The position numbers and the translations under genes are program-made. A stretch of DNA of 27,682 nucleotides from an uncultured archaeon (GTDB lineage: Archaea; Asgardarchaeota; Lokiarchaeia; Sigyniarchaeales; SOKP01), in contig CAZWEM010000054.1 of assembly GCA_964632315.1 (NCBI GenBank), positions 1 through 27,682 of the forward strand, in the 5' to 3' direction. The notes below the pieces were generated by a model. It worked only from the letters and a program-made list of their open reading frames with translations. It was not told the origin of the DNA and made no database searches. Shown here one piece after another: positions 8,428 to 27,682 of this stretch (the first letter of the stretch is position 1; the number at the start of each line of letters is the position of its first letter).

Positions 8428-8505
8428 GGCTAAAGCTTAATTATTTGTTATACCTATCAAATAAATAGAATTTTTTACATAAATATATGCCGAACCGATT
8501 TATCA

Positions 8506-9465: not shown

Positions 9466-9497
9466 TTTTTATCCCGTTAATTTAATTCATTATTTTA

Positions 9498-9695
9498 TTG
9501 GCAGATTTCCCCATGAAGAAAAAGAAAAGTTCTGCAAAAAAGAAAAAGTCAAAAAAAGCAGAAGGATTAGCTGAACCTTTAATCGGACAGATTAAATGTC
9601 CTAGTTGTCGAAAATTAATTCAAGAAGGGCTAACATTCTGTCCAGAGTGCGGAAATAGAATACCAGAGTTCTTAAGATATAATCCAATTTCATGA
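9498..9695 (+). CDS. Small zinc-ribbon protein with Lys-rich N-terminus
   Basis: CPSC...CPECG motif; co-oriented and tightly packed between its neighbours. The start may be TTG 9498 or the ATG at 9513. Confidence 0.75.
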   Translation: MADFPMKKKKSSAKKKKSKKAEGLAEPLIGQIKCPSCRKLIQEGLTFCPECGNRIPEFLRYNPIS

Positions 9696-9723
9696 TAGAG
9701 AAAAATTACTTGGTGGTGTTTTT

Positions 9724-10242: not shown

Positions 10243-10364
10243 TTTTTAAAATCACTAATTTAGGAGTTCTCAAAGGATCAGTTATTTTCAAAAGAATTTT
10301 TAAAAGATCAAATAATCTTTTACAACATAAAGAATATATTCGATCATTTGCATGTAAATTCTAG

Positions 10365-11348: not shown

Positions 11349-11387
11349 CAAACATTTCAATTTCTCACTCATTCTTTGACCTTAGGA

Positions 11388-11395
11388 TTTTTTTT
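11388..11395 (+). terminator. Possible archaeal oligo-T terminator after the Rag-like GTPase gene
   Basis: T8 run within a T/C-rich stretch about 40 bp after the stop at 11348. Confidence 0.3.
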
Positions 11396-11493
11396 CCACT
11401 CTTTCATTTTAGCATTTAAACTATTTAAAAAAAGTTAATAAATTGGTATTTTCATTATAGATATAAGATAAAAAGGAAAATGATCAAATTTAA

Positions 11494-12459
11494 ATGATTA
11501 TATGCTCAAATTGCGGAGCTACAAATAATGAAGCAAATAGCAATATTTGCAGAAAGTGTGGCGCATTGCTTCCAATATCAACTAAACCTCCTCGAGTTAA
11601 AATAAAGAGCAAAGAAAAAAAGCCAAAAAAATCAGATAAAATAGAAGCCACAGAAACAAAGAAATCTGAATTAGATCTTCAAGAAATCCCTCTATCAGAA
11701 TTTGAGGAAAGTTTAAAAGATCTCGATAAAATTTCCGAATTGGAAGATGACGACAATGAGGTTTTTTATACAGCTAAAGAAGAAGAAGAAAGGGATGTCT
11801 TTCTTAAAGAAATCAAACCAAGTCCATTTCAAGGTTCAATTATAACTGATAAAAAAATATATGGTTCTTTAACTCCTCAAAAAAAACAAGAATCAATCTT
11901 AGTTTCAAAAAAAGATGAGAAAACACAAACTTCCACGACTATTATACGTCAAAAACAATTAGAAGAAGACATGACTAAAGTATTAAAATTCTTGTCAAAA
12001 AAAATCACGGTTAAGGAACTGCCTTCTCAAACTATTGATAAAAAAAAAAATGATGTCACGCAAAAACAAGATTCCTTCATTCCTCTCAGCATGAATGAAA
12101 TATTAAAGGATTTGTTGAAACTTGATGTAAATATAGAAGCATCAGCGATCATTAAATCGGACGGGACAATTTTAGCATCAGCAATATCATCTCGAATATC
12201 CGACTCTTTATTCGCTACTATTGGGCAAAACTTAACAATGATTGGTATTGATATTGTTGATGGGTTGAGTGCGGGTAAGTTAAAGAGTATTTCTTTGAGA
12301 GGCTCTAAAGGAGTATTAGACTTAGCACCCATTTCTGAAGCAAATGATATGTTATTACTAATCTTCAGTAATCCGAAAATTAAGAGTGGAATCATTCATT
12401 TAGCAGCTAAAAATGTGAAGAAACAAGTAAGAGAATATCTTGGAATTTCCAAGAAGTAG
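11494..12459 (+). CDS. N-terminal zinc ribbon + charged low-complexity linker + C-terminal Roadblock/LC7 (MglB-like) domain protein
   Basis: CSNCG...CRKCG at the N-terminus and a K/E/D-rich middle. The last ~125 aa (IEASAIIKSDGTILASAIS...LKSISLRGSKG...LLLIFS...GIIHLAAK) match the roadblock pattern. Confidence 0.85.
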   Translation: MIICSNCGATNNEANSNICRKCGALLPISTKPPRVKIKSKEKKPKKSDKIEATETKKSELDLQEIPLSEFEESLKDLDKISELEDDDNEVFYTAKEEEERDVFLKEIKPSPFQGSIITDKKIYGSLTPQKKQESILVSKKDEKTQTSTTIIRQKQLEEDMTKVLKFLSKKITVKELPSQTIDKKKNDVTQKQDSFIPLSMNEILKDLLKLDVNIEASAIIKSDGTILASAISSRISDSLFATIGQNLTMIGIDIVDGLSAGKLKSISLRGSKGVLDLAPISEANDMLLLIFSNPKIKSGIIHLAAKNVKKQVREYLGISKK

Positions 12460-12460
12460 A

Positions 12461-13231
12461 TTAATTTAAATTTCTACTAAATTCGATCGTTTTAAAATAA
12501 TTTTTATTCCGAAATAATTCTTGTAGGAATGAATTTAATTGACAAATAGAGACTAAAGGTATCTTATTTTCGTTCATTTTAAAAAAATTTTGCTCGAGAC
12601 TTACCATAAAGGGAATTAGTATCATTTCTTCCATATTTGTTTTCATCTTTAACTTCTTACATAATTTATAAATAACTTCGGGATTATTGACTAAAGCCTT
12701 CACGCGCGTGAACTGTAAATTTCCAGCCTTATTCATTGCACCAAAACTATCCTTTCTTTTCCATTGTTTAGCATCGATAAATAACATGTAGTTTTTTTGA
12801 ACAGCTATCACATCAATTTCATATCTTTTTTGAGAATTTGGGTTTTTTAAGTTCGATTTATCAGAAAATCGAAAATTATTTATAGTTTTATAGTTATTCA
12901 GTTTGAGAATTTCGGCGATAAGGGCTTCAAAACCATCAAAGGTAATGATTAATGCAAGATCTCTTATGTCTAAATCCAGCGATTTAATTGCTTCCACGAT
13001 GAAGGGTATTTTATTTATGACAATATAATCACTATAATTACCCTTCTTAATGGAAACTGAATCGATAATTTCTAGAAATTCATTAATTTGGTATTTATTA
13101 TATCTGTTGAAAAAGAGTACTTCAGATGGTTCAATCCACACTTCAATAACTTTGGGGTCAGAGGTTTTTAAAATATTGAAAATCTCGATGAAAAATCTCT
13201 TCAATAGATCGAAGGTGATTATTTCAGGCAT
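12461..13231 (-). CDS. PD-(D/E)xK nuclease, Mrr-like/NERD restriction-endonuclease fold
   Basis: FEALIAEIL...NY and EIDVIA...FIDAKQW match the Mrr-cat E...ID...(D/E)xK motif. Confidence 0.8.
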   Translation of the reverse strand: MPEIITFDLLKRFFIEIFNILKTSDPKVIEVWIEPSEVLFFNRYNKYQINEFLEIIDSVSIKKGNYSDYIVINKIPFIVEAIKSLDLDIRDLALIITFDGFEALIAEILKLNNYKTINNFRFSDKSNLKNPNSQKRYEIDVIAVQKNYMLFIDAKQWKRKDSFGAMNKAGNLQFTRVKALVNNPEVIYKLCKKLKMKTNMEEMILIPFMVSLEQNFFKMNENKIPLVSICQLNSFLQELFRNKNYFKTIEFSRNLN

Positions 13232-13349
13232 AAGAAAGATTTGATCTGATTTTTAAATTAAATATAAGACTGTGATGATTAATTAATTAATAGTCTTCTT
13301 TTTTAGTAGGGAATGAATAATTTATTTCAGACGAATCAAATTTAATTAA

Positions 13350-13357
13350 GGGGAGGA
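13350..13357 (+). promoter_or_regulatory. Strong Shine-Dalgarno site for the nrdD-like gene
   Basis: GGGGAGGA, with GGAGG at 13352-13356, 8 nt before the ATG at 13365. Confidence 0.65.
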
Positions 13358-13364
13358 TATAAAA

Positions 13365-15158
13365 ATGGATCTTTTACCTAAAGTCAATGTAACCGAAGGC
13401 GATGTGGTAGAATTTGAACCAAATAAAATTTTTAATAGTATTGTAAAAGAAACAAATATGAATGAAGCTGATGCAAGAAGAGTCACAGAACTTGCAGTGC
13501 GTAGAATTATTAGCTCTGGCATGAAGTTCTTATCTGGGCCTCACATTAGAGAAATTGTATGTTCAATTCTATCTGAAAATCATTATGAACAAGAGAGAAA
13601 ATTGTACACTCGGATTGGAATGCCATTGATGGATTATGAGGAAATCTTAGAGAAGGGTGTCTCTAATGGTTCAGAAAGCATATTGAATCCTGAAAAAATC
13701 CATCATTGGGCAGCAAATCAATTAGCTGAAGAATATACTTTATTGAGGATCTTAACTGATGAAGAAGCTCATGCACATCTATTTGGAGATATCCACATTC
13801 ACCAATTAAAATATTTTGATTTGAGACCATATAGTCAATATTATGATCCCAGGCTAATATTAAGTAATGGTGTACCGCCAATTAAAAATTATAACCAAGC
13901 TTGTCAATCAGGGGCTCCTAAAGATTTAAAGGACGCTTTGGATCAACTTGTAAGTTGGTTAGGAATGGTTCAAACAGAATTCAGTGGAAATCAAGGGTTA
14001 GAATTTTTAACAATTTTTTTAGCACCATATTGTGCTGGAATGAAAAGAGAAGCAATAAAATCGATCATGAAGAATTTTGTGTATAAAATAAATTATTTGA
14101 TTACCGCTTCTGGTAAAAACATGCTAAATACTTCTATCTCTTGTGCTCCAATGATACTTCCCGAATTTCTTGATATTCCCGCTGTGGGAGCAAATGGAAA
14201 AATAGTAGGTACATATTCAAATTATATGGACGAATGCCAAACTATATTTGATGTAATAACGGAAGTATTTAGAGAAGGTGATGCTTGTGAGAATTCCTTT
14301 AGGAGTCCAGAACATTTAGTTTTTTTTAGTCATGAATGGTTAATCACTCACCCAGAACAATTTGATCGCTTAATTTCTGAAGCATTCATTAATCATAATC
14401 CTAGCTTTATCAACATTGATCAAAACAGGAGAATTAAACAACAAATCGAGCAATATAAAAACCCTTACATGAATTTTGGGGTATTACAAAAAATCTCGAT
14501 AAATCTTCCCCGGATTGCATTTAATTCCAAAGATGAACCGAGATTTAACAATAAATTGGATAATGTCTTAGATACTTGTTTTGAAATATTAAGGAAAAAA
14601 CACAATATAATTAATCAACGATTAGAAACAAACCACTTACCATTATGTAGCGGAAAAATTAATGGAAAAAGAATTTTTGAATTAAACAATCAACAACTTT
14701 GTCTTGGCGTAATTGGTCTAAATGAATCAGTAAAAATTATCTCAAACGAGGAATTACATGAAAGTGACTCTGCGTTTAATTTGGGTAAATCAATTTTACA
14801 TAAAATTTCAGATCGATGTAAAGAACGTACGAGAAATGAAGGTAAAAACTATTCCCTTATTGATTCCTCATCCAATCGAGCTATAAAGAGATTCATAAGA
14901 TTAGATTTAAAACATTTCCCAAAGCTTGCACTTCGTAATTACCAACAGTCCACTCATTTTTCACCAGATGCGAATCTTAGTTTAGAAAAAAGAATTAAAA
15001 AACAAGGAATTTTACATGAATTAATCTTGAACGAACCAAAAATGAAAATTTCAATCAACAGAAATAAAGAATTCATCCAAACTGATTCTGACTTAAAAGA
15101 AATTTTACTTTATACGTGTAGAAATACTCATCTAAATCGATTAAAATTCATCGAATAA
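13365..15158 (+). CDS. nrdD: ATP-cone + anaerobic (class III) ribonucleotide reductase NrdD-like protein; C-terminally short and catalytically degenerate
   Basis: ATP cone (FEPNKIFNSIVKET...LSGPHIREIVC), LYTRIGMPL, AHLFGDIHIH, FSGNQG, ISINLPRIA and LGVIGLNE identify archaeal NrdD. There is no C-terminal Zn ribbon and no R-[IV]-x-G-Y glycyl-radical loop. Confidence 0.82.
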   Translation: MDLLPKVNVTEGDVVEFEPNKIFNSIVKETNMNEADARRVTELAVRRIISSGMKFLSGPHIREIVCSILSENHYEQERKLYTRIGMPLMDYEEILEKGVSNGSESILNPEKIHHWAANQLAEEYTLLRILTDEEAHAHLFGDIHIHQLKYFDLRPYSQYYDPRLILSNGVPPIKNYNQACQSGAPKDLKDALDQLVSWLGMVQTEFSGNQGLEFLTIFLAPYCAGMKREAIKSIMKNFVYKINYLITASGKNMLNTSISCAPMILPEFLDIPAVGANGKIVGTYSNYMDECQTIFDVITEVFREGDACENSFRSPEHLVFFSHEWLITHPEQFDRLISEAFINHNPSFINIDQNRRIKQQIEQYKNPYMNFGVLQKISINLPRIAFNSKDEPRFNNKLDNVLDTCFEILRKKHNIINQRLETNHLPLCSGKINGKRIFELNNQQLCLGVIGLNESVKIISNEELHESDSAFNLGKSILHKISDRCKERTRNEGKNYSLIDSSSNRAIKRFIRLDLKHFPKLALRNYQQSTHFSPDANLSLEKRIKKQGILHELILNEPKMKISINRNKEFIQTDSDLKEILLYTCRNTHLNRLKFIE

Positions 15159-15332
15159 TTTCTAAGATTTAATTGCTCGCAAATATTTAATAATGGGATC
15201 TATCTTCATATATTAGTATATTATACAACTTTATATGAATCAAGTGAAAGTACTAATTAAACACTAGTGTTGATTTTTAAAGTAAAATACTAATTCTTTG
15301 TTAGTTGGACGGATCCCTTACGGTTAGGAAAT

Positions 15333-16745
15333 ATGGAAGAGCAAAAACAAGACATAATCAAGTCAATAGTATTCTCCGTTTTTGATGATGATGGCCCCAC
15401 ACCGAAAATCTATTGGCCCATTGATATGGAAGAATCTGCACGACTATTGGTTGCCATGAAAACAATCTCAATTCTAATGGGAGACGCGATCTATCAAAAT
15501 GGAAATACGACGGAAGGGATATCTTACTTTGGAATTCTTCCTTTCCCAGATTTGAAGTTAAATGGGCTTACATATTTCTTTTTGATACCTGATGAGAATG
15601 CCCGTGGTAATGCAAAAGCAGCAACTATAACTGCTTTGATTGATTCAGCGAATAAGGGTTTTTTTTATGAAAATATGAAATATTTAAGGGTCATTATCGA
15701 TAAATCAGCAACCAAGATTCAAGAATCTAAAAATAAGGATGAATTGAGCATCATCATAGATGATTTGAGGAATGAATTATTAGAATTTACGAGTGCCTTA
15801 GAAAATCCCTTATCCGGAAGACAGCAACTTAAAATCTTAATTACGGGATTAGCCAACTCAGGAAAGACAAGTTTCCTACTAGGTGTTAAAAAAAGATATT
15901 CTGAAATCATAAAGGTCTTACCTACTAAGGGGGTTTCTCGTTCAAATGAGGAAATTTTCGAAGAACAAAATTCTCGGATATCAATTTGGGATATTGGAGG
16001 ACAACAGAAATATCTTGAAAGATTTCTTCAAGAAAGTAAATTTTATCTTTATAATATTGATGTACTATTTTATTTTATTGATATTCAAGATCATGAAAGG
16101 GTTAAAGAATCCTTGGACTTATTTCACAGAATAATTGAAATTTTACAAAATTTAAATGAATCTCCTCCAATTGTTATTTGCTTGAATAAATTTGATCCAG
16201 ATTTAAAAGAATCCAAGAAAATTAATAAGTTGCTTAAAAGCATAATTCACGAGATTGAAAAAAATACTGAAGGATTTTACATTAAAATATTTGAAACATC
16301 CATTTTTAATAGATGGAGTTTAATTTCGGCCTATTCCTATGGACTCTCCCAGCTTAGCCCCAATAAGGAGATTTTTAAAAGTCAGCTAAAATCTTTTGCT
16401 AAAAGCATTGATTCAGATTCTATATTACTATTATCTGAAAATGGTATTATTTTATCTTCTTATTCAAATTCAGAAATATCCGAAAAGTTATTCGCTGTTT
16501 CGGCCCCCCATTTTCAAACACTTTATAAAACTTTTCATGAGTTCAAATTACTTAAGAAGGATTTTTTAATCTCATCAGGTACAGCTGATAATTCTAAAGT
16601 AATTGTTTTTAAAAAAATGATTGTTGGTACTTTCAACCTCTATATATTACTGTATTTGAAAAAGAAATATGAATTAAGTAATTTTGAATCCAAGTTGCCA
16701 CATTTCTCACAAAATATAAGAAATTTGATGTTGAACTATATTTAG
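15333..16745 (+). CDS. Multidomain Arf/Rag-like small GTPase: longin/uDENN-like + GTPase + roadblock-like (paralogue of 6931..8427)
   Basis: G1 GLANSGKTS, G2 PTKG, G3 WDIGGQ, G4 NKFD, G5 TSIF. The N-domain SIVFSVFDDDGPTPKIYWP...FGILPFPD aligns by eye with the paralogue's FGIIPFPD. C-terminal ILLLSENGIILSSY. Confidence 0.88.
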   Translation: MEEQKQDIIKSIVFSVFDDDGPTPKIYWPIDMEESARLLVAMKTISILMGDAIYQNGNTTEGISYFGILPFPDLKLNGLTYFFLIPDENARGNAKAATITALIDSANKGFFYENMKYLRVIIDKSATKIQESKNKDELSIIIDDLRNELLEFTSALENPLSGRQQLKILITGLANSGKTSFLLGVKKRYSEIIKVLPTKGVSRSNEEIFEEQNSRISIWDIGGQQKYLERFLQESKFYLYNIDVLFYFIDIQDHERVKESLDLFHRIIEILQNLNESPPIVICLNKFDPDLKESKKINKLLKSIIHEIEKNTEGFYIKIFETSIFNRWSLISAYSYGLSQLSPNKEIFKSQLKSFAKSIDSDSILLLSENGIILSSYSNSEISEKLFAVSAPHFQTLYKTFHEFKLLKKDFLISSGTADNSKVIVFKKMIVGTFNLYILLYLKKKYELSNFESKLPHFSQNIRNLMLNYI

Positions 16746-16759
16746 AGTTTGAATACTTG

Positions 16760-17998
16760 TTAGTAGTTCGTAAAAGCTTTTCTGCGTCTTCTTTTCTTAA
16801 TAATGATAACAGTAATAATAGTTATTACCAAAATTCCCGAGGGAATGGAAATTAACCATACTAAAGTGAAATCTATTGGAGTTAAATTCGTTTCAATAGC
16901 TTTAATTGACAAAGTATATTGATAATCATAATTTGAATTAGATTGATAGACTATGCAAGGATTGGGAAATTCACTCTGTTTCTTGGATATTGCTGGAATT
17001 GAAAACCACTCCCCTGCATTTAACGCTAATCTTAAGTAATCAACTCGATTCACGTAATCATATTCTTTATTCCATGTGGGGTCAGAAGCGACCCACCCTA
17101 TTCCCTCTACGTAATACTCAACCCATGCATGCCCTAAAAAGTTGTCTTCCGTATTAGAGGCTGTAAATTTCCAGGTTTGACCGACACGTGGTCTTAAGGA
17201 GGGATCATTCGAAATAACATAGCCAGTTACTTTTCTCGCAGGAATCCCTTGACAACGTAAAAGTGTTATCATCAAGGTGGAATATTCGCTACAATCACCT
17301 TTTTTATTATCATAAGCCCATTTAGCCCCATATTCTTGAGCAGGGAGATTTCCATCATAAGTCAAATAATTTGAAACCCAATTACATATTTTAATCGCTT
17401 TTTGTATAGGATTATCGCTCGGTTCTACAATTTCATACGAAGTATTGTTTAAGATGGGATCATCCATCTCATAATAGGTCTCGTTAATGCAGTAAAGATC
17501 AAAAAAATAATTACTCGAGTTATCATATGGTTTGATTTTTGAATAATTTACACCAGAGAAAGAAATCTCATTTAATTTTATGATATAGTTTTGACTTAAT
17601 GTTATGGATTGTCCGGCAAGTAAGGTATTGTTGAATACATCATAGGTATTGTTAAACTTATCAATCGAAACATAAGGAGTACTAGCTGAGCCTGTTATCT
17701 TACTATAAGTCAAATTGCTTTCTTGAAATGGAGGAACATCCTTTGTAAGTATGGAATTAGGTGTTCGATTATCAAATCGAGAAAATTTAAACCAATAAGA
17801 GTAACTCCCAGTTTTAATACTAGTTAATGAAAAATTTACCTCAACTTGGTACGTGACGCTTTGTAACTCCTTATAGGGTTCACTCGTGAGTGAGATATAA
17901 AAATTTGGAACATGGTTCGAAGAATTAAATTGAATGGAAGTGAAAATAATGGACAAAATTGTAACAAGGGCCACGATATGTTTAATTAGCGATTTCAT
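16760..17998 (-). CDS. Secreted, membrane-anchored transglutaminase-like cysteine protease domain protein
   Basis: N-terminal signal/TM helix, triad motifs GDCSEYS, HAWVEYY and DPTW, GIPARKVTGY, a C-terminal TM followed by KKRRRRK, and many N-x-S/T sequons. Confidence 0.9.
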   Translation of the reverse strand: MKSLIKHIVALVTILSIIFTSIQFNSSNHVPNFYISLTSEPYKELQSVTYQVEVNFSLTSIKTGSYSYWFKFSRFDNRTPNSILTKDVPPFQESNLTYSKITGSASTPYVSIDKFNNTYDVFNNTLLAGQSITLSQNYIIKLNEISFSGVNYSKIKPYDNSSNYFFDLYCINETYYEMDDPILNNTSYEIVEPSDNPIQKAIKICNWVSNYLTYDGNLPAQEYGAKWAYDNKKGDCSEYSTLMITLLRCQGIPARKVTGYVISNDPSLRPRVGQTWKFTASNTEDNFLGHAWVEYYVEGIGWVASDPTWNKEYDYVNRVDYLRLALNAGEWFSIPAISKKQSEFPNPCIVYQSNSNYDYQYTLSIKAIETNLTPIDFTLVWLISIPSGILVITIITVIIIKKRRRRKAFTNY

Positions 17999-18074
17999 CT
18001 TTCAAAAGTATCTCATTATTTTATAAGTATCATACAATTACGATCTTTTATTTTTGACTATAAAAAAGAATCAA

Positions 18075-18097
18075 AAGATACATTACAAGATACATTA
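18075..18097. repeat. 11-bp direct repeat AAGATACATTA x2 (12-bp period) in a divergent intergenic region
   Basis: Read directly: aagatacatta c aagatacatta. Confidence 0.7.
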
Positions 18098-18151
18098 TTA
18101 AGGATATAATTTATTAGATTTGTAATTTAGAAAATAAATATTTTTTTAAAT

Positions 18152-18793
18152 TTGATATATAAAATCTACTTAATCGACGGAGATTCTGGAATTTTAATTT
18201 TAGAATCCACTTTCAAAAAGCTCGCTGAAGACAAATTAGATGATGATTTGATCCCCGGTTTCTTTAAGGAAATTAATAAGATAATAGATCATATTCAAGA
18301 AGCAATGGCAAAAGGAGAGAAAGGAAATGAAATTATTAGAGTTCTTGAATCTGAATCTTCTACGATTATTATCTATTTTTATCCCCTCCCCCGTATTTTA
18401 TTCTGTTCTATCTCTGATGCTGATGATGATTCTGATAAATTAATAGAGGTAATACATAAAATCGCTAATAGATTTTATAAAAAGCATCAGTCTGATATAA
18501 ATATCTTTAGGACTACATCGGAAAACACTAGTTTTAAAACATTTACTGCAGATATCGAAAATCTAACTCATAATGGGCATATAGGGGAAGTTTTTCCTAA
18601 CTTGTTAATTGTTAAAAATGTATTGTCGAAAATCTTTAACATGGGAATGATATCTGATTTCGAATTTCATGTAGCGTTGCTCGCTACTGGTGAGAATTCT
18701 CCGCTTAAGATATCAAGAATGTTGCATAAATCAAAATTGGAAATAGCAGAAGCGTTAATAAAGCTGAAAGAATTGGATATCATTAAATTATAA
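18152..18793 (+). CDS. Longin-like domain + C-terminal winged-helix protein
   Basis: IYKIYLIDGDSGILILES...DDDLIPGFFKEI...ILFCSISDADD...IANRF fits a longin/sigma-adaptin pattern. C-terminal TGENSPLKISRMLHKSKLEIAEALIKLKELDII fits a wHTH. Confidence 0.72.
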   Translation: MIYKIYLIDGDSGILILESTFKKLAEDKLDDDLIPGFFKEINKIIDHIQEAMAKGEKGNEIIRVLESESSTIIIYFYPLPRILFCSISDADDDSDKLIEVIHKIANRFYKKHQSDINIFRTTSENTSFKTFTADIENLTHNGHIGEVFPNLLIVKNVLSKIFNMGMISDFEFHVALLATGENSPLKISRMLHKSKLEIAEALIKLKELDIIKL

Positions 18794-18923
18794 CCAAATG
18801 TGATTCCCAATGTCTGTAAAAATATTGAAATAGATTTCTCCATTATCTTTTTAACACAATTACAAAATTTTATTTTTTATCCTTCTTTAGTCATTAATAA
18901 TCATACATCAAAAGTGAGTTAAT

Positions 18924-19487
18924 TTGGAAAAAAGGCAAAGTTTAATTCCAATCGTAAAATCGCCTGCAAGAGACGCCCATCTAAGAAATGGTAGTGGGTT
19001 CTCCTTACCAGAAATCTCATCAGCAGGTCATAATATACAAACTCTAAAAAAATTAGGCATTCAAATTGATTATCGTCGTCAATCAGCACATGAAAAGAAT
19101 GTAAAATTACTCAAATCCTTGAAAATCTCAGATAAAAAGCAAAAAAAGCGAGAACCATTCGTGGCTAAAGAAAAAAAGCGAACCGGATTTAAACCAAAAA
19201 CAGAGAAAAAGAAACAAAGGGTAAAACCTGCTATTAAGAAACAAAAAGTAAAAGAAGAACCAAAGAAAGAAAAAGAGGAAGTTAAACAAATCGAGACAGG
19301 TACTCCCTTGACAGAATTACAAGGCTTAGGTCCTGCCACTGCTAAGAAATTAAACGAACTCGGTGTTAGTTCGGTAGAAGACCTCTTAAAAGAAAAACCA
19401 GAAGAACTAGGAACTTTAGTAAAGGGCTGTACTGAAGATCGATTTAAAAAATGGATTGAAGAAGGAAAAGAATTAATAACAAAGTAA
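18924..19487 (+). CDS. rpl13e: 50S ribosomal protein L13e with Lys-rich linker and C-terminal helix-hairpin-helix domain
   Basis: PIVKSP...RNGSGFSLPEI..AG...LGIQIDYRRQSAHEKNV is L13e. LTELQGLGPATAKKLNELGVSSVEDL is an HhH (Rad51-N/NusA-like) motif. Confidence 0.87.
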   Translation: MEKRQSLIPIVKSPARDAHLRNGSGFSLPEISSAGHNIQTLKKLGIQIDYRRQSAHEKNVKLLKSLKISDKKQKKREPFVAKEKKRTGFKPKTEKKKQRVKPAIKKQKVKEEPKKEKEEVKQIETGTPLTELQGLGPATAKKLNELGVSSVEDLLKEKPEELGTLVKGCTEDRFKKWIEEGKELITK

Positions 19488-19575
19488 ATCCAACTTTTCA
19501 TTCTGATAAATTTATTTTTGACTGATTTTATACCATATTTACCAGAAAATTATTTTTAATTTTGAGGTTATTTCA

Positions 19576-20073
19576 ATGGAGTTTAATTATTATAATTACC
19601 AAAAAGAAGAATGCAAAATAGGCATTGGAAAATTACCTATTTGGTTTAAAGAGGTAAAATATGAAGGTGATGAAAAAGAGGGATCTCTCGTTTTTCATTC
19701 TCAGAACGATTATGATGAATTTTGGGGCGGGAATGCTAAAATGGATCTCTATTGGGAAACTCGAGAGAGGGGATCTTTTTTCTTTTCAAAACTTGTAGAA
19801 CAATCAATAGAAACCTATAATGCCATTGGCCTCGTAGTTACTTCTAAAGAAAATACGTGGCATTTAAGCCACGAGTTTATATACTGGTACGGACAGAGAA
19901 CAAAAATGTTACATAAACATCATTATTCCGCTAGAAGTATACATGGCATATTTTATTGCGACATGACTGAACGTTTATTTAATATTCACACTGAAGTGAT
20001 TAACAAGTTTTATGAAAATTTTAAACCCTATATCCTGAAGGGATATAGCACGATTGTGTGTCATGATATCTAA
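19576..20073 (+). CDS. Hypothetical protein (aromatic-rich; YC...R and terminal CH motifs)
   Basis: 165 aa ORF with GAGGT SD upstream; no recognisable family. Confidence 0.7.
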   Translation: MEFNYYNYQKEECKIGIGKLPIWFKEVKYEGDEKEGSLVFHSQNDYDEFWGGNAKMDLYWETRERGSFFFSKLVEQSIETYNAIGLVVTSKENTWHLSHEFIYWYGQRTKMLHKHHYSARSIHGIFYCDMTERLFNIHTEVINKFYENFKPYILKGYSTIVCHDI

Positions 20074-20786
20074 TTCATTTTTTTAAAAAACGCAAAAAAA
20101 TTATCCTTTTTGTTAGGACCTCCCAACTTGCGGAGTTCAAGTAATTTAAAGTTCGAGAATAAGCGCATAATCTCTGTTCTAGAATATAGATGGTAATAAC
20201 GTTCGTAGGTTTTATTGAGTTTAGATACTTTCCACGGGATAAATATATCCCCGAAATCCTCCAATCCTAGGCTTTTTTGATGTTGCTTAAACTTTGGGAA
20301 TAATAATCGCTTGGAAAAGTCATTTATGAAATAATTTCTAAATCTTTTTTGATATTTTCGCCAAACCGTAATTAAAAGAAAACCTCCTTTCTTTAAGACC
20401 AAGTTTAATTGTTTGACCATATATTGACGATAATGAACACCATGTACGTGATGTAAAGCAGCTATAGAGAAGATTGTATTTATTGAATTAGGACGTAAGG
20501 GTAATGATTTCATGTCACTTAAAATAAGGTGAGGTTTCAATTTATTTTGAGATTTTCTTTCTTTGGCTATTTTTAAAAATTCTAAAGAATTATCAATTCC
20601 AACTATATATTTAGATTTGAACAATTCAAAATTTCTTCCATTTCCACATCCTAAATCTAAGATTAAACCTTCTAGAAGAAATTGTTGGGTTTTAATTTGA
20701 TTTAGAAATGATTCTAAAGTTCGCCAAGGTCTTTTTCTTTTTAAATCATAATCTCGTGCTAATCCTTCTTCATAAATGAAATTCAT
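20070..20786 (-). CDS. Class I SAM-dependent methyltransferase, Trm9/ALKBH8-like (putative tRNA wobble-U methyltransferase)
   Basis: LDLGCGNGRN, VGIDNS, SIAALHH, LKKGG.LLITVW, IPW and RYYHLY match Trm9-type motifs. Confidence 0.82.
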   Translation of the reverse strand: MNFIYEEGLARDYDLKRKRPWRTLESFLNQIKTQQFLLEGLILDLGCGNGRNFELFKSKYIVGIDNSLEFLKIAKERKSQNKLKPHLILSDMKSLPLRPNSINTIFSIAALHHVHGVHYRQYMVKQLNLVLKKGGFLLITVWRKYQKRFRNYFINDFSKRLLFPKFKQHQKSLGLEDFGDIFIPWKVSKLNKTYERYYHLYSRTEIMRLFSNFKLLELRKLGGPNKKDNFFAFFKKMN

Positions 20787-20847
20787 GGCGATTAAATTAG
20801 AATAAGAATTGAGAAAAAATAAAAACTAGTAAAAACTAATTAGGAAA

Positions 20848-22404
20848 ATGGATATACTTTCAGACTTATTGAATAAAATGAGCAAGAATTTTTCAAATGA
20901 CATACTCCAATTTTATGAACAGTTTTATTCATACACTTTAGATTTAATGAATAACAAAAATATTGATTTTAACAAGCAAATTAGTGAAGTGGATGAAGAC
21001 TTACAAGTATTAATAAATTCCATTAATTCAGCATTAAATACAACAGGCATACCAATTACAGAACTTTCGAACCATGCTTTATTAAAAGATTTATTCAAAG
21101 ATGCATTTATCGCTGGAGAAACTAATTTCAAGAATCTCTTTGATAAGGTTGGAAAGGGCTTTATCAACAAACATCTCTTTAAATCGATTTTAGAATATGT
21201 CCTAGATATAGATACCATCAAAATTGAGAACTTAGATTTGTTTGATCTTTTACCAGTAAATTTTAAACATAAATTGGATGAGTTAAAGAAGAACTTAACA
21301 ATATCTGATAAGGATAGACAGAAAATCAAATCTCTGTTTTCTACTATTAACAAGGATTTTGATACTACTACCTTAAAATTTAAAAATAATCGAGTAAATA
21401 ACTCTGAAGAAGGAATGGATATTTTAAAAAAATTACAGGAAGCTAAAGAAAATAATATTCAAGTCTTAAAAGATCCAAACCAGCATGGTTTACCTAGTAA
21501 CACTGTAAAAATTCACGATGAAGTTCAAAATGTAAAACAATCTTCTTATTTTGATTTTTTTGGGAACTTTCCCTTACTTGATTCGCAGAAAATTCAAAAT
21601 ATTAAAGTTGATGTAAAGAATTTTAGTGAAATTGTCTTTAATATGGATTTGTTGATGGATCTGGAAAATTTATTTTATTTTATTAGCATATCAAAAATGT
21701 TAGGTTTAAACAATCTTATTCAACAAAAAAGAATAATTACCATATTGAAGAACTTCGTAAGGGGTTCTATATTTAGCAGTGGAATGTACCACATTTCAAA
21801 TCCAATAAGTAATTTTTATGGTCTTTGCATTCTTTCTGAATTAGATATTTTACAAGAAGATATGGTAAATTTTGTTGATTTTATAGATATTGAGATGTTC
21901 CTCGAATCGGAAATTAAAATTTTTAATCCGTCAAAGTTTTTTTTAAACTTTTATAGCTTTTTAAGCTTAAAGATTCTCGAAAGGCATGGTATGACAGTAG
22001 TAGATAAATCTGATCTTTTAAATCTCCAATTAAGTTTGGATTTTTCTAACATAAATCCAGAAGATTTACCAAGAGATCTCTTATGTCATCTAACTCTTAT
22101 AAAACTCATCAAAAAGGATTTCAAGTTTAATCATGATTTTACAGATTTAAATTTTAATGATTTACTTTCTTCAAATGATTTAATCAATGGTAATATTACA
22201 GATTCAGCGAGAGTTTTATTAATTTTTGATATTTTAAATCGGAAAGACAATGCCCTCATAAAAAGACTCGATAATGCGATATTATCGAATTTGCAAGCTT
22301 TTAGTGGAACTTATCCTCAACTTAATTGGAAATCGGATATTTTAGCTTTAAAAACAGAATTACGCATGTTATTTTGGTCATGTCTCGCTTTGTTGAGATA
22401 TTAA
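20848..22404 (+). CDS. Hypothetical alpha-helical protein; C-terminal half possibly degenerate prenyltransferase/terpene-cyclase-like helical repeats
   Basis: 518 aa ORF with repeated helices such as LENLFYFISISKML, ISNFYGLCILSEL, FLNFYSFLSLKIL and ITDSARVLLIFDIL. The fold call is weak. Confidence 0.6.
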   Translation: MDILSDLLNKMSKNFSNDILQFYEQFYSYTLDLMNNKNIDFNKQISEVDEDLQVLINSINSALNTTGIPITELSNHALLKDLFKDAFIAGETNFKNLFDKVGKGFINKHLFKSILEYVLDIDTIKIENLDLFDLLPVNFKHKLDELKKNLTISDKDRQKIKSLFSTINKDFDTTTLKFKNNRVNNSEEGMDILKKLQEAKENNIQVLKDPNQHGLPSNTVKIHDEVQNVKQSSYFDFFGNFPLLDSQKIQNIKVDVKNFSEIVFNMDLLMDLENLFYFISISKMLGLNNLIQQKRIITILKNFVRGSIFSSGMYHISNPISNFYGLCILSELDILQEDMVNFVDFIDIEMFLESEIKIFNPSKFFLNFYSFLSLKILERHGMTVVDKSDLLNLQLSLDFSNINPEDLPRDLLCHLTLIKLIKKDFKFNHDFTDLNFNDLLSSNDLINGNITDSARVLLIFDILNRKDNALIKRLDNAILSNLQAFSGTYPQLNWKSDILALKTELRMLFWSCLALLRY

Positions 22405-22977
22405 ACCTGCTTTTTCTAAAAATTTTTTGGCAGTTGGATTTTTCTCGTTCTTATTCCAATTAAAAATAAAATTGGCATTTTTCTCCAAATCTTTTAAGGC
22501 TTTTTTTCCTAAAGATTTCCAAGATTTGACATCAATTACAGGAGCTTTATCATTTATCCCTTCACAATATTTCTTTCCTTTTTCAGTAATTAAGATCTTT
22601 ACTTTTTCATCTTCATTTAGATTAAATGAAAAGGGGAACGTTCTGCAAAAACAAGGTCTTATGGAATAAATTCGACATTTCTTTTTCTCTTGATTATAAA
22701 AAATGCAATTTCCATCTTCATTTTTTCTAAGGGCAATAAAAGATTTTCCTTTCTCAGTCGTGATTGGTGGAATTACCATCTGTTCAAGAGCTTCAGAAGA
22801 TTGCATTTCCTTTAAGACATAAAAACTAGTTATTTCTAATAACTCATCTATATCAAGGTTCAAACCATTTTTTAACCGATTCAAATCTGTGATGGTTAAG
22901 TTTACAATAGTTTTATTATCAGTACAACACGTTCCGCATCGGTTACACTCAAATTTGAATTCGTAATCATTAGTCAT
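22378..22977 (-). CDS. YkgJ-family cysteine-cluster (CxxCxxCC) Fe-S/Zn protein
   Basis: FECNRCGTCC, CIFY, CRIYSIRPCFCRTFPF and CEG. Confidence 0.9.
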   Translation of the reverse strand: MTNDYEFKFECNRCGTCCTDNKTIVNLTITDLNRLKNGLNLDIDELLEITSFYVLKEMQSSEALEQMVIPPITTEKGKSFIALRKNEDGNCIFYNQEKKKCRIYSIRPCFCRTFPFSFNLNEDEKVKILITEKGKKYCEGINDKAPVIDVKSWKSLGKKALKDLEKNANFIFNWNKNEKNPTAKKFLEKAGLISQQSET

Positions 22978-23016
22978 ATATTTTAATAAAAGAATAGAAA
23001 AAAATAAAATTTAATC

Positions 23017-26000
23017 TTATTTCGAAGTTGGAAGGATTATTTTATTGCTAATTAATGATTCGATTGCTTCAATAATTACATCCTTATTTTCCTCACTTAC
23101 AGTTTCAATGATATAATCCAAAAAGAAGCTTTTCTTGCTTTTCGCCATCGAGTATACGGTATTTAAAACTCGGGTTTCCATTTTGCTTAGTTCAACTTCT
23201 TTACGTAATTCTGAGATGAATTCTACGTTATTTAATATGAAGGGTTCTTTATAGTATAAATCTAAGTACTGTTTAAGTATTGGAGGCATTTCATTTTCAA
23301 ACGTTTCCAAAGCACCATCCCAATGCTCAATTAGATCATTTAAATTCAAGGTAATTCCAGCGGCTAAATTAATTATGTCATTCTTTAAATTTTCTGAAGC
23401 CTTTTCAGTAAGAACGACCACAATTCTCAGATCATCCCGATCACAAATTAAGCAATGGAAATATTTAAAGTCCAGCTCAAAAAGATTCTGAACAACTCCA
23501 GCTCTACTTTCCCCTTCATCTGACCGCTTTCCAGCAATTTCCTCCCCAATTGATGTGATAGCTTGTACAAATCCAGCAAAAAGCTCTTTCTTTTGCTTTT
23601 CGAGTATTGAATAACTCTTCGAATATAAGGGTATACCGCTATATCTATGCATCAATACAATGGCTTGAATGTTTTGCAGATCCTTAAAATTTTGAGTCTT
23701 TGAAAGTAACTCTGCTTCTTTCCTTCTTTTCCTTGGGAGTATAACATAAGATCTGATACTCAATGCTCCTAAAATACCGATCGCAATCGTTGCACCTCCT
23801 ATTATGATCCAAAGCATGAAATTTGGAAGCTCTCTTGGAGATATCACTACTATGAACGAGGTTTGCATAGCTTTAAATAAAATACTATCGGTTAAAATAA
23901 TCAGAGAGACTTTATAGCTCCCACGAACATTTTCTGGTAAAGTAAATGTAGCTTCATAAATCCCCGAGCCCACATATTCAAGATTTCCTAAACCATATTC
24001 CCATGAATAGCGTATCGTTGCATTTTCAATTATGTTAGTAGTTATTGATTCTGTTAAATTGATTCTTATCAAAACTGAGTCTCCAGAATATCTTTCAATC
24101 GAATCTTGAAAATCGATGGTTTTTGCATTCATTTCAATTTGATTTACTAATACTTGAAAATAGAATTTAGACGTTATATAATTCGGATGGGTAAAGCTAA
24201 CGTATACAGTATTTATACCTAAATCAAAATTATCAGGATCACACGTAACATTTATATTATACCAGTATTCATCATTTTCAATAAATTCTTGATGATAGTC
24301 CCCGATAACTAAAATTGCGCTTCCTCCACTTAGATGAATCTTCTCTGCATTTGCCATTGCTCTTAAAGAAAGTGAAAAATCATCATAATAGGTAACCTGA
24401 ATCAGATTATTTGATTGAATCTCGTTAGATCCGGCGTATAAAGATAAATTGACTGTTTCGGCTGTGATAAAAAATTGGAAGGATAAATAGGAAACAGTAT
24501 AATTGGCTTGTTCAAATTTAATAGAAACCGTATTGATGCCTAAATCAAAATAAGCACCATCAATAATGAAGTTTAAGGTAAACCAAGTGGGTGTTACCTC
24601 ATCAAAATCAAAATGGAACGATCCACTTATTAAAGAGATATTTCCACCAGTTAAATAAATGGTTTCTCCCATAGCAAACGCTTGGGCTGAGATTGTAATA
24701 TTTTCTTTAAACATTAGTTCAATCAATGCTCCTTCAGAAGGGATTGATTGGTCATTAATCGAAGCATTAAGCACCACTGATTGTTCTCTCAACAGTAGTT
24801 GGAATGAAAAGTAAATAGTAGTGTAATTTTCCTTTTCGAACTTGATTGATACGCTATTTATTCCAGAACTAAAATTTGATGCTGTAAATATTATTGATAA
24901 ATTATACCAATCTCCATTTTCAATAAAATCCTTATAATAAAATTGGCTGTCCCAATGAACTTGAGCACCTGAAATATAATTCAAATCTACTGTCCCATAT
25001 GCTCGTAGAGAAAATGATATAGTTTGCTTAAACATTACCTCAATTAATTGATTATCTAATATTTCTTTGGAATCGGCATAGGATGATAATTCTACGGATT
25101 GTTTTTTAACTAATAATTGGAATGAAAATACTTTTGTTTGATAGTCATCTTTTACAAATTGAATTGTTATGCTATTCAATCCTGCAGTGTAATTTATTGG
25201 CACAATTTGAATCGATAGATTATACCATGAACTTACTTCGATTAGCGATTGATCTTGATTTCCACCTTGCCATGTTACCAATGCTCCATTAATATATTCT
25301 ACTTCTACGGTTGCGAAAGCTCTTACTGATATCATGAGGTTTTCCATGTACATTGTTTCGATTATTTCATTTTCAGATATCGCTTGAGAATCGATGTATG
25401 CTGATAATTCAATGGATTGTTCGTGTACTAATAATTGAAAAGAAAATACTTCTGTTTGATAATCATTCTTAATAAACTGAATTGCTATGCTGTTCAATCC
25501 AGGAGTATAATTTGATGATACTATTTGAATTGATAGGTTATACCATGAACTTGTTTCAATTAATGCTTGATCTTGGTTTCCGCCTTGCCAAGAAATTATC
25601 GATCCCGTTATATATTCCATTTCAACAGTGGCGAAAGCCCTTACTGATACTGTAATAGTTTCCATGTACATCGCGTCGATTATCTGATTTTCAGAAATCG
25701 CTTGAGAATTAAGATATGTCGACAATTCTACGGATTGTTCTTGCACTAATAATTGAAAAGAAAATACTTTCGTTTGATAATCATCTTTCATAAATTGAAT
25801 CGCTATGCTATTCAATCCAGGTGTGTAATTAGATGATATTACTTGGATTGTCAGATTATACCACAGATTATCTTCTACTAATTCTTGATCTTGGTTTCCA
25901 CCTTGCCAAGTAATTAACGCCCCAGTGATATAATTCGTTTCTAATGTTGCGTAAGCCCTTACTGATATAGTAAAATTTTCCATGTACATCGTTTCGATTA

Positions 26001-27682
26001 TCTCATTTTCAGATATCGCTTGAGAATCGATATATGCAGATAATTCAACTGGCTGTTCGTGTACTAACAATTGAAAATAGAAAATGTCAGTTTTATACTT
26101 ACTCATCTCAAACTTTATCTCTATTAAATTTAATCCCGCTGAATATACTGATGGGCTAATGATTATAGATGCATTATACCAGGAATCCCCTTCTTCGTTT
26201 AGAGATTGCTGATAAAAATCTACAATCCAAGTGAAATTTCCCCCGGACAGTAATTCATTATCGATATTTGCTTTTGCTTTCGCGGAAACATTAAGCTGTT
26301 CCATGTAGTTAACTTCTATAATAGAATTTTTATCGATATTTTGATTGTTTATAGAAGTGGTTATGTTTATACTCTGTTCAACAATTCTAAATTGGTAAAT
26401 ATGTGTCTGCGGTTCGTAAGAAGGAGCCGTAAAATTGAAATTGAGTTCATAAATTCCTAAATCATCAATGAAAGAGGTGTTAAACTGAATGTCATAGAGA
26501 CCATCACCCGAATTTTTGATGAAATATAACTCAGGATTAGTTATATTAACTTCAACAAGTGCCCTATTGATTCCGGTTTTGCTCACCGTAGAATAGTAAT
26601 TGAATTTAATCGTGCTATTTGCATGCATTTCAATATTATAATCAGATTCAAGTCTCTGTAATCTAGTTTCCTCACCTAAATTAATTCTTAAAGTCAAATT
26701 ATAATTCTCAAATCCCACTTTAAAGGATTGTATTAATATTTCATAAAAACCATTCGAAACTAATTCTGATGTTTCTAAATTAGTTTCATATATCCCTAAA
26801 GCAGCTTCTTCGAAATTCTTTATTTCTGGTACCCCTTCATTTGTCCAATTATATGAAATTATTGCATTAGAGATTGAATCATTATTTTCCGAATCAAAAA
26901 GTTTTATTCGAACAGGAATTATATCTCCTAAAAATGCGTCGGTTATTAAATCAGAAATCGCATCGTTTGGTTTAAGCAAAGACAACAAGCTATTATGAAT
27001 GACAAAAAAGCTGGAGTTTAAACCTCCCAAACAAGTACCATTGGACCAAAATAGCGTATACTCATATTCTCCCCCAGTAGTATTTAATGCATCAAAATAT
27101 AATTCCGAGAAGAAAACAGTTCCATTTGATAATGGGGTTTTCGATTCAAAAAACCATTCGCTATCGTTAGGATCATAAATAGTTAGATTTACTGATGTAT
27201 CATCTAGATTACTTGGAATTTGATTAGTGTAATTAACTTGTGTTTTCAGAATTGTTGATTCCCCCGTAAAAAAAGTATTATCGCTCTCTCCAACTAATTT
27301 AGTATTGGTTAAGTTTAAAAAATTAGGTGAGGTAGCCTTAAAAGTCCACCAACCAGGATATAACGCATTATCTTTATTGATCTTTAAAATTGTATCCCCT
27401 TCATTTCCATATTCATAAACACGGCTTTGTAAAGTAGGATCTAACGCAGATATAAAGTTCCAGTTCCGTGGCTTAATAATGGTAAATTCAAAATCTGAAT
27501 ATTGAGCTGGCATATACAGATTATGTGAAAACTCCCATACTATGGTTCCATTTTTTAATATTTCATAAGAAATTCCTTCTAGGGTAGTTTGTCCTACTCG
27601 TGATTTGGATTTGTGATACCCATAAATGGTTGTATCAAGATCAAATGATAAGGAAGGTGAATCTGTAGTAACAGTTAATTTT
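23017..27682 (-). CDS. Very large single-pass surface glycoprotein: tandem Ig-like repeats + TM + cytoplasmic longin-like + wHTH; 5' end lies outside the window
   Basis: The frame stays open upstream of the track's ATG (27513) to the window edge (...KLTVTTDSPSLSFDLDTTIYGYHKSKSRVGQTTLEGISYEILKNGTIVWEFSHNLY-MPAQ). It has abundant N-x-S/T sequons, a TM FMLWIIIGGATIAIGILGALSI followed by RKRRK, and a cytoplasmic AIVLMHRYSGIPLYSKSY...LFAGFVQAITS longin pattern. Confidence 0.88.
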   Translation of the reverse strand, partial: KLTVTTDSPSLSFDLDTTIYGYHKSKSRVGQTTLEGISYEILKNGTIVWEFSHNLYMPAQYSDFEFTIIKPRNWNFISALDPTLQSRVYEYGNEGDTILKINKDNALYPGWWTFKATSPNFLNLTNTKLVGESDNTFFTGESTILKTQVNYTNQIPSNLDDTSVNLTIYDPNDSEWFFESKTPLSNGTVFFSELYFDALNTTGGEYEYTLFWSNGTCLGGLNSSFFVIHNSLLSLLKPNDAISDLITDAFLGDIIPVRIKLFDSENNDSISNAIISYNWTNEGVPEIKNFEEAALGIYETNLETSELVSNGFYEILIQSFKVGFENYNLTLRINLGEETRLQRLESDYNIEMHANSTIKFNYYSTVSKTGINRALVEVNITNPELYFIKNSGDGLYDIQFNTSFIDDLGIYELNFNFTAPSYEPQTHIYQFRIVEQSINITTSINNQNIDKNSIIEVNYMEQLNVSAKAKANIDNELLSGGNFTWIVDFYQQSLNEEGDSWYNASIIISPSVYSAGLNLIEIKFEMSKYKTDIFYFQLLVHEQPVELSAYIDSQAISENEIIETMYMENFTISVRAYATLETNYITGALITWQGGNQDQELVEDNLWYNLTIQVISSNYTPGLNSIAIQFMKDDYQTKVFSFQLLVQEQSVELSTYLNSQAISENQIIDAMYMETITVSVRAFATVEMEYITGSIISWQGGNQDQALIETSSWYNLSIQIVSSNYTPGLNSIAIQFIKNDYQTEVFSFQLLVHEQSIELSAYIDSQAISENEIIETMYMENLMISVRAFATVEVEYINGALVTWQGGNQDQSLIEVSSWYNLSIQIVPINYTAGLNSITIQFVKDDYQTKVFSFQLLVKKQSVELSSYADSKEILDNQLIEVMFKQTISFSLRAYGTVDLNYISGAQVHWDSQFYYKDFIENGDWYNLSIIFTASNFSSGINSVSIKFEKENYTTIYFSFQLLLREQSVVLNASINDQSIPSEGALIELMFKENITISAQAFAMGETIYLTGGNISLISGSFHFDFDEVTPTWFTLNFIIDGAYFDLGINTVSIKFEQANYTVSYLSFQFFITAETVNLSLYAGSNEIQSNNLIQVTYYDDFSLSLRAMANAEKIHLSGGSAILVIGDYHQEFIENDEYWYNINVTCDPDNFDLGINTVYVSFTHPNYITSKFYFQVLVNQIEMNAKTIDFQDSIERYSGDSVLIRINLTESITTNIIENATIRYSWEYGLGNLEYVGSGIYEATFTLPENVRGSYKVSLIILTDSILFKAMQTSFIVVISPRELPNFMLWIIIGGATIAIGILGALSIRSYVILPRKRRKEAELLSKTQNFKDLQNIQAIVLMHRYSGIPLYSKSYSILEKQKKELFAGFVQAITSIGEEIAGKRSDEGESRAGVVQNLFELDFKYFHCLICDRDDLRIVVVLTEKASENLKNDIINLAAGITLNLNDLIEHWDGALETFENEMPPILKQYLDLYYKEPFILNNVEFISELRKEVELSKMETRVLNTVYSMAKSKKSFFLDYIIETVSEENKDVIIEAIESLISNKIILPTSK
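24145..26382 (-). repeat. Seven tandem ~318-324 bp (106-108 aa) coding repeats; three highly similar 318-bp copies at 25108-26061
   Basis: The marker CGCTTGAGAA occurs at 25381, 25699 and 26017 (exact 318 bp period). The protein unit is EQ.VELS.Y...Q.I.EN..I..MY...WYNL.I....GLNSI.IQF.K..Y.T..FSFQLLV. Confidence 0.92.

Follow-up and report, generated by a model that had tools for sequence, protein, structure and literature searches.

A predicted type I surface glycoprotein of a Lokiarchaeial genome with a conserved cytoplasmic longin and winged-helix tail

We analysed a 27,682-bp stretch of archaeal DNA (the window; GenBank assembly GCA_964632315.1, contig CAZWEM010000054.1), which is an entire contig, C54, of a 4.45-Mb Asgard metagenome-assembled genome of about 31% G+C; the named relatives of its proteins are all from Promethearchaeota/Lokiarchaeia-type or other Asgard archaea. 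Our subject is the giant open reading frame (ORF) at 23017..27681 on the minus strand, which comprises 1554 codons plus a stop (23017-23019), has no internal stop and is cut at its 5' end by the end of the contig. An initial annotation had described its product as a giant glycosylated ectodomain wired through one transmembrane (TM) helix to a cytoplasmic longin and winged-helix module, and had proposed a receptor that recruits small GTPases to the membrane. The architectural observation is confirmed by analysis of the sequence, and the interpretation is partly supported: the evidence speaks for the architecture, whereas nothing that we found raises the GTPase part above an inference. We lean, without great confidence, towards reading the protein as a type I surface glycoprotein in which a variable ectodomain is joined to a membrane-fixed cytoplasmic docking tail. 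As judged from profile searches, this tail defines a large, multi-copy Asgard family for which neither Pfam nor NCBIfam has a model.

The giant protein is predicted to cross the membrane once

A single TM helix is predicted at 23734..23820 (minus strand). Its hydrophobic core, residues 1288-1309 (23820 down to 23755), coincides with the helix first placed at about 23755-23820, and the hydrophobic stretch may extend to residue 1316 (23734). The inner end of the helix is an interfacial S-x-R-S-Y-V-I-L-P motif that runs up to residue 1316 and whose S, R, Y and P are invariant among 20 relatives. It is followed by a basic stop-transfer and juxtamembrane helix (residues 1317-1336, 23674..23733, minus strand), which begins with the RKRRK that the initial annotation had read as a positive-inside signal (residues 1317-1321, 23719-23733). 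This segment is highly conserved and has a net charge of +4 (family median +5); six lysines or arginines are found in the 15 residues after the TM helix, as against one before it. The cytoplasmic tail, residues 1317-1554, is 238 amino acids (aa) long, close to the 240 or so first estimated, and all the peptide strings that had been quoted from it are found in the translation.

The distribution of N-x-S/T sequons points to the same topology. All 38 lie before the TM helix, about twice the expected number: shuffled ectodomains contained 19.1 +/- 3.7 sequons, and none of 2000 shuffles reached 38. The tail has no sequon where 1.6 would be expected, a difference that is not significant alone; sequons occur at 3.45 per 100 aa in the ectodomains of 74 family members vs 0.52 in their tails. 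Taken together with the single hydrophobic segment, this asymmetry, the basic stop-transfer and the signal-like N-termini of full-length orthologues support a type I single-pass protein with its N-terminus outside and its C-terminus inside, as had been supposed. The ectodomain is probably glycosylated as well; here the sequon excess agrees with the earlier description, while glycosylation itself is a sequon-based prediction and not an observation.

The start of the protein lies outside the window. Residue 2 of the ORF aligns at residue 463-476 of the full-length orthologues P0169 and P0170 (1393 and 1809 aa), and full-length orthologues open with a hydrophobic signal-like segment. Therefore, the ORF lacks about 465 N-terminal residues, the signal sequence among them, and, consequently, the ATG at 27513 is not its true start. 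The initial annotation had advised retrieving the upstream contig for the signal peptide and the full length. This did not succeed: the missing 5' end was not found elsewhere in the assembly using as queries the orthologous N-termini, the upstream PfkB gene and the ~104-115-aa genes. In two relatives the orthologous gene was called as two ORFs, of 858 + 268 aa with a 143-nt gap (L010:5281-8807) and of 1348 + 373 aa with a 4-nt overlap (L012:2032-7196); the cause could be a frameshift, a fault in the assembly or a real division of the gene.

The tail begins with a predicted longin-type domain

We examined the fold of the tail in an AlphaFold2 (AF2) model of residues 1280-1554 built with 20 relatives (predicted local distance difference test [pLDDT] 76.6, predicted template modelling score [pTM] 0.65). 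The model consists of a long helix, in which the juxtamembrane helix is a straight continuation of the TM helix, then a longin-type fold, and finally a small helical end. In the second of these parts (residues 1337-1475, 23257..23673, minus strand), DSSP assigned strands (E) and helices (H) in the order E59-66, E72-77, H86-107, E119-125, E130-136, E139-145, H151-173 and H180-193, in model numbering. The predicted domain thus has the five-stranded antiparallel sheet and the beta-beta-alpha-beta-beta-beta-alpha-alpha topology by which longins are recognised.

Structural comparisons gave a concordant picture. The best match obtained with VIA-align was the longin domain of VAMP7 (Z 12.3, root-mean-square deviation 2.5, 113 aligned residues), and further matches were AP-5 sigma (Z 12.0), CPLANE (Z 11.7), Sec22 (Z 11.5) and the Lokiarchaeota longin 8yqg (Z 10.4). 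Thirteen of the 14 top rows (Z 10.4-12.3) are longin domains, the other being synbindin, a longin-type SEDL-fold subunit of TRAPP. A Foldseek search of the PDB, which the initial annotation had recommended together with AlphaFold modelling, returned, at E ~1e-4, zeta-COP, sigma adaptins, subunits of TRAPP, LAMTOR and the C-terminal domains of Rag proteins. The longin-like start that had been noticed in the tail is therefore borne out by the predicted structure.

Roadblock domains share this superfold and also match the model, at Z 8.6-10.3. Their rows span model residues 54-170 only, whereas the longin matches span 58-196. Because longins rank first and cover the whole domain while Roadblock chains stop at about residue 170, the topology fits a longin better than a Roadblock domain. 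Roadblock/LC7 domains have the order alpha-beta-beta-alpha-beta-beta-beta, in which an N-terminal helix packs on the sheet and no more than one helix follows at the C-terminus. The tail has a conserved helix before the first strand, the one modelled as a continuation of the TM helix, and two C-terminal helices; in the actual protein, this juxtamembrane helix might pack as the first Roadblock helix does. We predict, then, that the tail starts with a domain of the longin/Roadblock superfold with longin topology.

The tail ends in a predicted winged helix

The remainder of the tail (residues 1476-1554, 23020..23256, minus strand) is modelled as a beta/alpha linker and a winged helix. When the last 81 residues were modelled alone with 64 sequences, AF2 reached a pLDDT of 90.7; the elements H27-42, a bridge at residue 46, H48-54, H60-72 and E76-78 of this model give H1 (1500-1515), H2 (1521-1527), H3 (1533-1545) and a wing strand (1549-1551). 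All VIA matches, at Z 5.5-8.0, are winged helices, in keeping with the winged helix-turn-helix (wHTH)-like end first suggested. They comprise Zur (Z 8.0), the RiPP recognition element (RRE) of TbtB (Z 7.9), the MetAP2 insert, ORC, Cdc6, RPA32C and Rio2, and also residues 167-238 of 8fw5 chain B (Z 5.7), which we take to be NPRL2.

Since DNA-binding proteins (Zur, Fur, MecI and LexA) are among the nearest matches, the protein might be a membrane-tethered transcription regulator whose winged helix binds DNA at the membrane or after proteolytic release of the tail, and Rce1-like intramembrane protease genes do adjoin two of the paralogues in this genome. However, H3 has a net charge of -2, against a family median of -1, and is positively charged in 19% of 64 members; the core of the winged helix carries almost no net charge (family median 0) and the wing is shortened by the C-terminus of the protein, so that the basic recognition helix and wing of a DNA-binding wHTH domain are lacking. 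Moreover, matches of equal quality are obtained with protein-binding winged helices (RPA32C, ORC, Scc1, RREs and 8fw5 chain B). A transcriptional role is thus very improbable, and we infer from the acidic H3 that the winged helix binds protein rather than DNA.

The tail is shared by a large Asgard family with divergent ectodomains

In a scan of 1.84 billion representatives, the tail family comprised 299 representative clusters at E <= 1e-3. There were 119 representatives that match from the beginning of the tail; in 111 of these the tail is immediately preceded by a hydrophobic segment, and 94 end no more than 40 residues after the tail. About a fifth of the family representatives carry a C-terminal extension longer than 40 aa (up to 237 aa). 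Total lengths range from ~250 to 2275 aa, many members have an N-terminal hydrophobic segment, and the same conserved tail is found on ectodomains of ~100 to 1900 aa. Among 301 sampled Asgard genomes, 267 contain a match to the tail profile (E <= 1e-5); the strongest come from the family to which the window belongs (68 of 68 genomes), with weaker ones in most other families. The nearest shapes in the ESM Atlas are the tail family's own Promethearchaeota clusters, of ~730-750 aa (TM-score 0.66-0.70), and a distant relative, P0252, bears the NCBI name 'roadblock/LC7 domain-containing protein'. We found no paper that describes a TM-anchored longin family in Asgard archaea, an absence that is not proof of novelty.

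The genome of the window encodes at least four TM-anchored members (ORFs of 1554, 1581, 1776 and 1931 aa), as well as a fifth member of 765 aa, and the tail module also occurs there in soluble proteins that carry a Zn ribbon and a coiled coil. The 1931-aa paralogue (C7:111830-117622, plus strand) has ~90 extra residues after the tail, with the look of a second helix-turn-helix-type element. The longin portion of the tail profile also finds the C-terminal part of a six-TM protein (C30:12370-13677, minus strand; domain E 0.0012). On contig C65 (14816-18603, plus strand), an ORF of 984 aa and, 125 nt downstream of it, one of 231 aa lie in tandem; the second matches the longin part (E 1.5e-7), and the pair may represent the fused architecture in 'split' form.

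The ectodomain of the window protein has three parts, all on the minus strand. An N-terminal part (residues 1-434, 26380..27681), rich in sequons, without a Pfam family and ~60% identical to its orthologues, is followed by seven tandem repeats of ~106 aa (residues 435-1179, 24145..26379; self-jackhmmer E 1e-43 to 1e-55) and by a membrane-proximal part (residues 1180-1287, 23821..24144) that is conserved in relatives and aligned to P0169 and P0170. Residues 355-431 form a partial, divergent extra copy of the repeat, and the middle three repeats are near-identical in DNA (Tandem Repeats Finder: period 318, 3.2 copies, 25070-26077). No part of the ectodomain has a Pfam or NCBIfam family or a match in a PDB sequence search. 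The repeat number differs among orthologues, whose lengths run from 1180 to 1855 aa.

The tail and the juxtamembrane segment are conserved at 50-60% identity while the ectodomains diverge and the repeat number changes, which argues for selection on a cytoplasmic interaction. Because the tail, the juxtamembrane segment and the inner TM end are all conserved in the face of divergent ectodomains, and because the module is reused in soluble proteins and its longin part on a six-TM protein, we regard it as a portable docking module. A rival possibility is that the protein is a purely structural surface-coat component or adhesin, whose tail holds the glycoprotein in the membrane, spaces it or drives its oligomerisation, for instance through pairing of the longin domains of neighbours, without any signalling. 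Giant, repeat- and sequon-rich ectodomains with varying repeat number are typical of surface-coat proteins; there are several paralogues per genome, in stand-alone genes without signalling neighbours; and a Lokiarchaeota longin domain crystallises as a dimer, according to the title of entry 8yqg. Such a role would also suit the envelope of Lokiarchaeia: Ca. L. ossiferum has no ordered S-layer and displays complex surface proteins (PMC9834061), dense and irregular structures to which a giant ectodomain of this kind fits. On the other hand, a two-domain tail of 238 aa that is better conserved than the ectodomain exceeds the needs of an anchor, and its occurrence in soluble forms, like that of its longin part on the six-TM protein, points to a portable interaction module. 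We therefore consider the purely structural role unlikely, and as sober a rival as the coupling to GTPases that is discussed below.

The initial annotation had also stated that the tail mirrors a soluble protein encoded in the window at 18152..18793 (plus strand). This 213-aa protein, a possible distant look-alike with longin-like and wHTH-like parts, is highly conserved in Asgard archaea (211-216 aa) and has 314 homologues at 60-100% identity, none of them with a Pfam family. BLASTP between the tail and this protein gave E = 10. An hhalign comparison with the tail profile gave a probability of 24.9% (E 7.8e-4) over 200 columns that are collinear from end to end, a probability that was 3.9% with the untrimmed tail alignment; by language-model features (Atlas), the cluster of the soluble protein ranked third among the look-alikes of the tail, with a score of 0.82. 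Prediction of a complex between the two proteins gave no support (score 0.01), which counts neither way. The tail weakly resembles the soluble protein, and this is a reasonable lead rather than a result.

Gene neighbourhood and small GTPases

The gene for a CxxCxxCC (PF03692) protein (22378..22977, minus strand; Pfam E 1.7e-13) lies 39 nt after the stop of the giant gene. Of 80 related loci, 66 have a CxxCxxCC gene immediately after the giant gene and in the same orientation, the two either overlapping or lying 0-50 nt apart. No other gene shows such close and repeated coupling to this group of orthologues, and the CxxCxxCC gene is likely to be co-transcribed with the giant gene. In close relatives the genes follow in the order PfkB, ~104-115-aa gene, giant gene, CxxCxxCC, ~530-aa protein, methyltransferase, ~164-aa protein, L13e-HhH, ~213-aa protein, transglutaminase, GTPase and NrdD. 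A block of ~25 kb (window 6931-22977; loci L010-L013, L019 and L020) is syntenic in relatives of the same family, with contents that include GTPases, NERD, NrdD-like, transglutaminase, L13e-HhH, methyltransferase and CxxCxxCC genes and those of the 213-aa and ~530-aa proteins; the GTPase genes thus share it with housekeeping genes such as NrdD and L13e. Since this block is syntenic as a whole, the proximity of genes within it says little about function. The transglutaminase-core protein of the window (16760-17998, minus strand) carries a hydrophobic segment at either end, has a sequon density of 2.9 per 100 aa and is probably another extracellular membrane-anchored protein.

This context bears on the proposal that the protein is a receptor for adhesion or contact, with a longin tail that brings Rag/Arf-like GTPases to the membrane or regulates them there; it would be a TM-fixed platform like Ragulator or GATOR that relays extracellular contact to GTPase switches. 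The longin fold is a GTPase platform in eukaryotes, and Mon1-Ccz1, TRAPP, CPLANE, SRX and AP sigma are all among the VIA-align matches of the tail. Three Gtr1/RagA-type GTPase genes, two of them with extra N-terminal regions, are found in the window, and the orthologue of the one at 15333-16745 remains ~6 kb from the giant gene in relatives. In addition, one of 14 distant members (L029) has an adjacent, divergently oriented Ras-family GTPase gene. However, the GTPase genes of the window lie 6-16 kb from the giant gene, in the syntenic block, and are set apart from it by unrelated genes on both strands. Fourteen paralogous loci have no GTPase within 6 kb, no GTPase gene adjoins the paralogues in this genome, and the other 13 distant members have housekeeping enzymes as neighbours (dUTPase, NDK, aIF5B, transaldolase, phosphoglycerate mutase). 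Paralogues and distant members have no recurrent GTPase, Roadblock or P0002-like neighbours, the exceptions being the Ras-like gene of L029 and a Roadblock gene on contig C55. Furthermore, the genome contains 93 small-GTPase-like ORFs, about one per 48 kb, so chance proximity must be common and proximity alone is weak evidence. The lack of coupling agrees with the remark that the GTPase genes of MK-D1 do not, in general, share operons with genes for longin or Roadblock proteins (PMC10933270). The GTPase recruitment first proposed thus finds no support in our results; it derives by analogy from the functions of eukaryotic longins, and we hold such a receptor to be an unlikely, if attractive, alternative.

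Two further features of the paralogous loci were noted. Rce1-like (CPBP) intramembrane protease genes stand directly beside two of the giant paralogues (L014:10632-11357 on contig C9 and L016:14848-15675 on contig C7), which could be due to chance or a hint of tail processing. The Roadblock gene on contig C55 (L018:4826-5341) encodes a Roadblock/LC7 protein that carries a Zn ribbon at its C-terminus. It lies on the same strand as the gene of the 765-aa paralogue and 1.3 kb downstream of it, with a gene for a 293-aa unknown protein between the two.

Discussion

The reading that we prefer, a variable ectodomain on a membrane-fixed docking tail, can be put as follows. The tail would serve as a protein-docking module held at the membrane, in which the longin domain may associate with a second protein of longin or Roadblock fold or make direct contact with a partner, and in which the winged helix would make a protein-protein contact instead of binding DNA. 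Many different ectodomains would in this way be tied to one common cytoplasmic partner or machinery. By analogy with Ragulator, GATOR1, Mon1-Ccz1 and SRX-SRbeta, a small GTPase or its regulator would be the most attractive candidate for that partner.

Several observations weigh against this reading and account for our caution. The genomic context offers no recurrent longin, Roadblock or GTPase-type partner of the tail, and the GTPase-free paralogous loci and the housekeeping neighbours of both the paralogues and the distant members count here as they did above. Neither the tail nor 47 family members searched with it has a Pfam or NCBIfam match, apart from a lone weak hit to a Pfam longin model among the 47 (Intu_longin_1, E 0.0095). 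The fold calls are those of predicted models, of which that of the longin is of moderate confidence by the pLDDT and pTM given above. Foldseek found no match to the winged-helix model at E <= 0.001 and the VIA matches of this part are moderate; for want of a significant Foldseek match, the winged helix is called at the level of fold only. The signal sequence of the window protein is inferred from orthologues, its own N-terminus being off the contig. Finally, as to expression, a search of sequencing runs with the locus (22300-24300) yielded salt-marsh and marsh DNA runs only and no RNA run; at least half of the sampled words were matched in four salt-marsh metagenome runs of one study, and other marsh runs matched in part.

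Asgard archaea possess dozens of longin/Roadblock domains and small GTPases, and their cells, which lack an S-layer, have a coat of uncharacterised surface proteins thought to be relevant to syntrophic cell contacts. The most far-reaching version, which strikes us as rather doubtful, is that the tail acts as a transmembrane-coupled GTPase platform, so that engagement or clustering of the ectodomain alters pairing of the module and thereby docks or regulates a Rag/Arf-like GTPase. If true, it would represent a prokaryotic forerunner of eukaryotic outside-in GTPase signalling, in the form of a receptor family with swappable ectodomains. More generally, if the partner of the tail is a GTPase or its regulator, a eukaryote-style link from the surface to a switch would predate eukaryotes; if it is not, the family nonetheless makes up a major part of the Asgard envelope that has gone unannotated. 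In either case, the family provides a purifiable handle, since the soluble 238-aa tail can serve as bait for the cytoplasmic partner, and it provides candidates for the genes behind the surface densities that cryo-tomography has shown.

Comparison with known systems

The tail shares its predicted fold, including the order of strands and helices, with a wide range of eukaryotic longins (VAMP7/Sec22/Ykt6, AP sigma, zeta-COP, TRAPP Bet5/Trs23, Mon1-Ccz1, Fuzzy-Inturned/CPLANE and SRX), to which it aligns at Z 9-12.3 over 104-136 residues, that is, over the whole domain. It differs from them in that it belongs to none of their sequence families and that its longin domain lies C-terminal to the TM helix of a type I surface protein. 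The difference is plain for the longin SNAREs VAMP7, Sec22 and Ykt6, in which the longin is followed by a SNARE motif and a C-terminal anchor; here the order is ectodomain, TM helix, longin and winged helix, with neither a SNARE motif nor a coiled coil between longin and anchor.

With Ragulator/EGO, whose LAMTOR and Ego/Gse1 chains match the tail model at Z 8.6-10.3, the family would share the idea of a membrane-fixed platform of the longin/Roadblock superfold in a genome rich in Gtr1/RagA-type GTPases, a likeness by analogy only. The anchor there is the lipidated scaffold LAMTOR1, which carries Roadblock dimers on which Rag GTPases dock, whereas here it would be the TM helix of a giant ectodomain protein, and the topology of the tail fits a longin better than a Roadblock domain. 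The succession of a longin and a small winged-helix-like domain recalls NPRL2/NPRL3 of GATOR1, although the match to 8fw5 chain B is one of many and non-specific. 'NPRL2-like longin' proteins and many fusions of longins to prokaryotic signalling domains have been described in Asgard archaea (bioRxiv 10.1101/2020.10.19.343400), in a text that makes no mention of a transmembrane or ectodomain architecture such as that of the family reported here.

The closest comparison by origin is with the solved Asgard proteins 8yqg (Lokiarchaeota Roadblock-Longin), 9jue and 7yh1 (both MK-D1 Roadblock) and 7f8m (Thorarchaeota Roadblock), which come from the same phylum and have the same superfold (Z 8.6-10.4, a comparison at the level of fold only). 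Asgard genomes are known to encode many longin and Roadblock proteins and fusions of these with GTPases (PMC10933270; bioRxiv 10.1101/2020.10.19.343400). The solved proteins are soluble or GTPase fusions, and PMC10933270 reports no membrane-spanning forms, whereas the tail described here is predicted to be anchored to the membrane by a TM helix.

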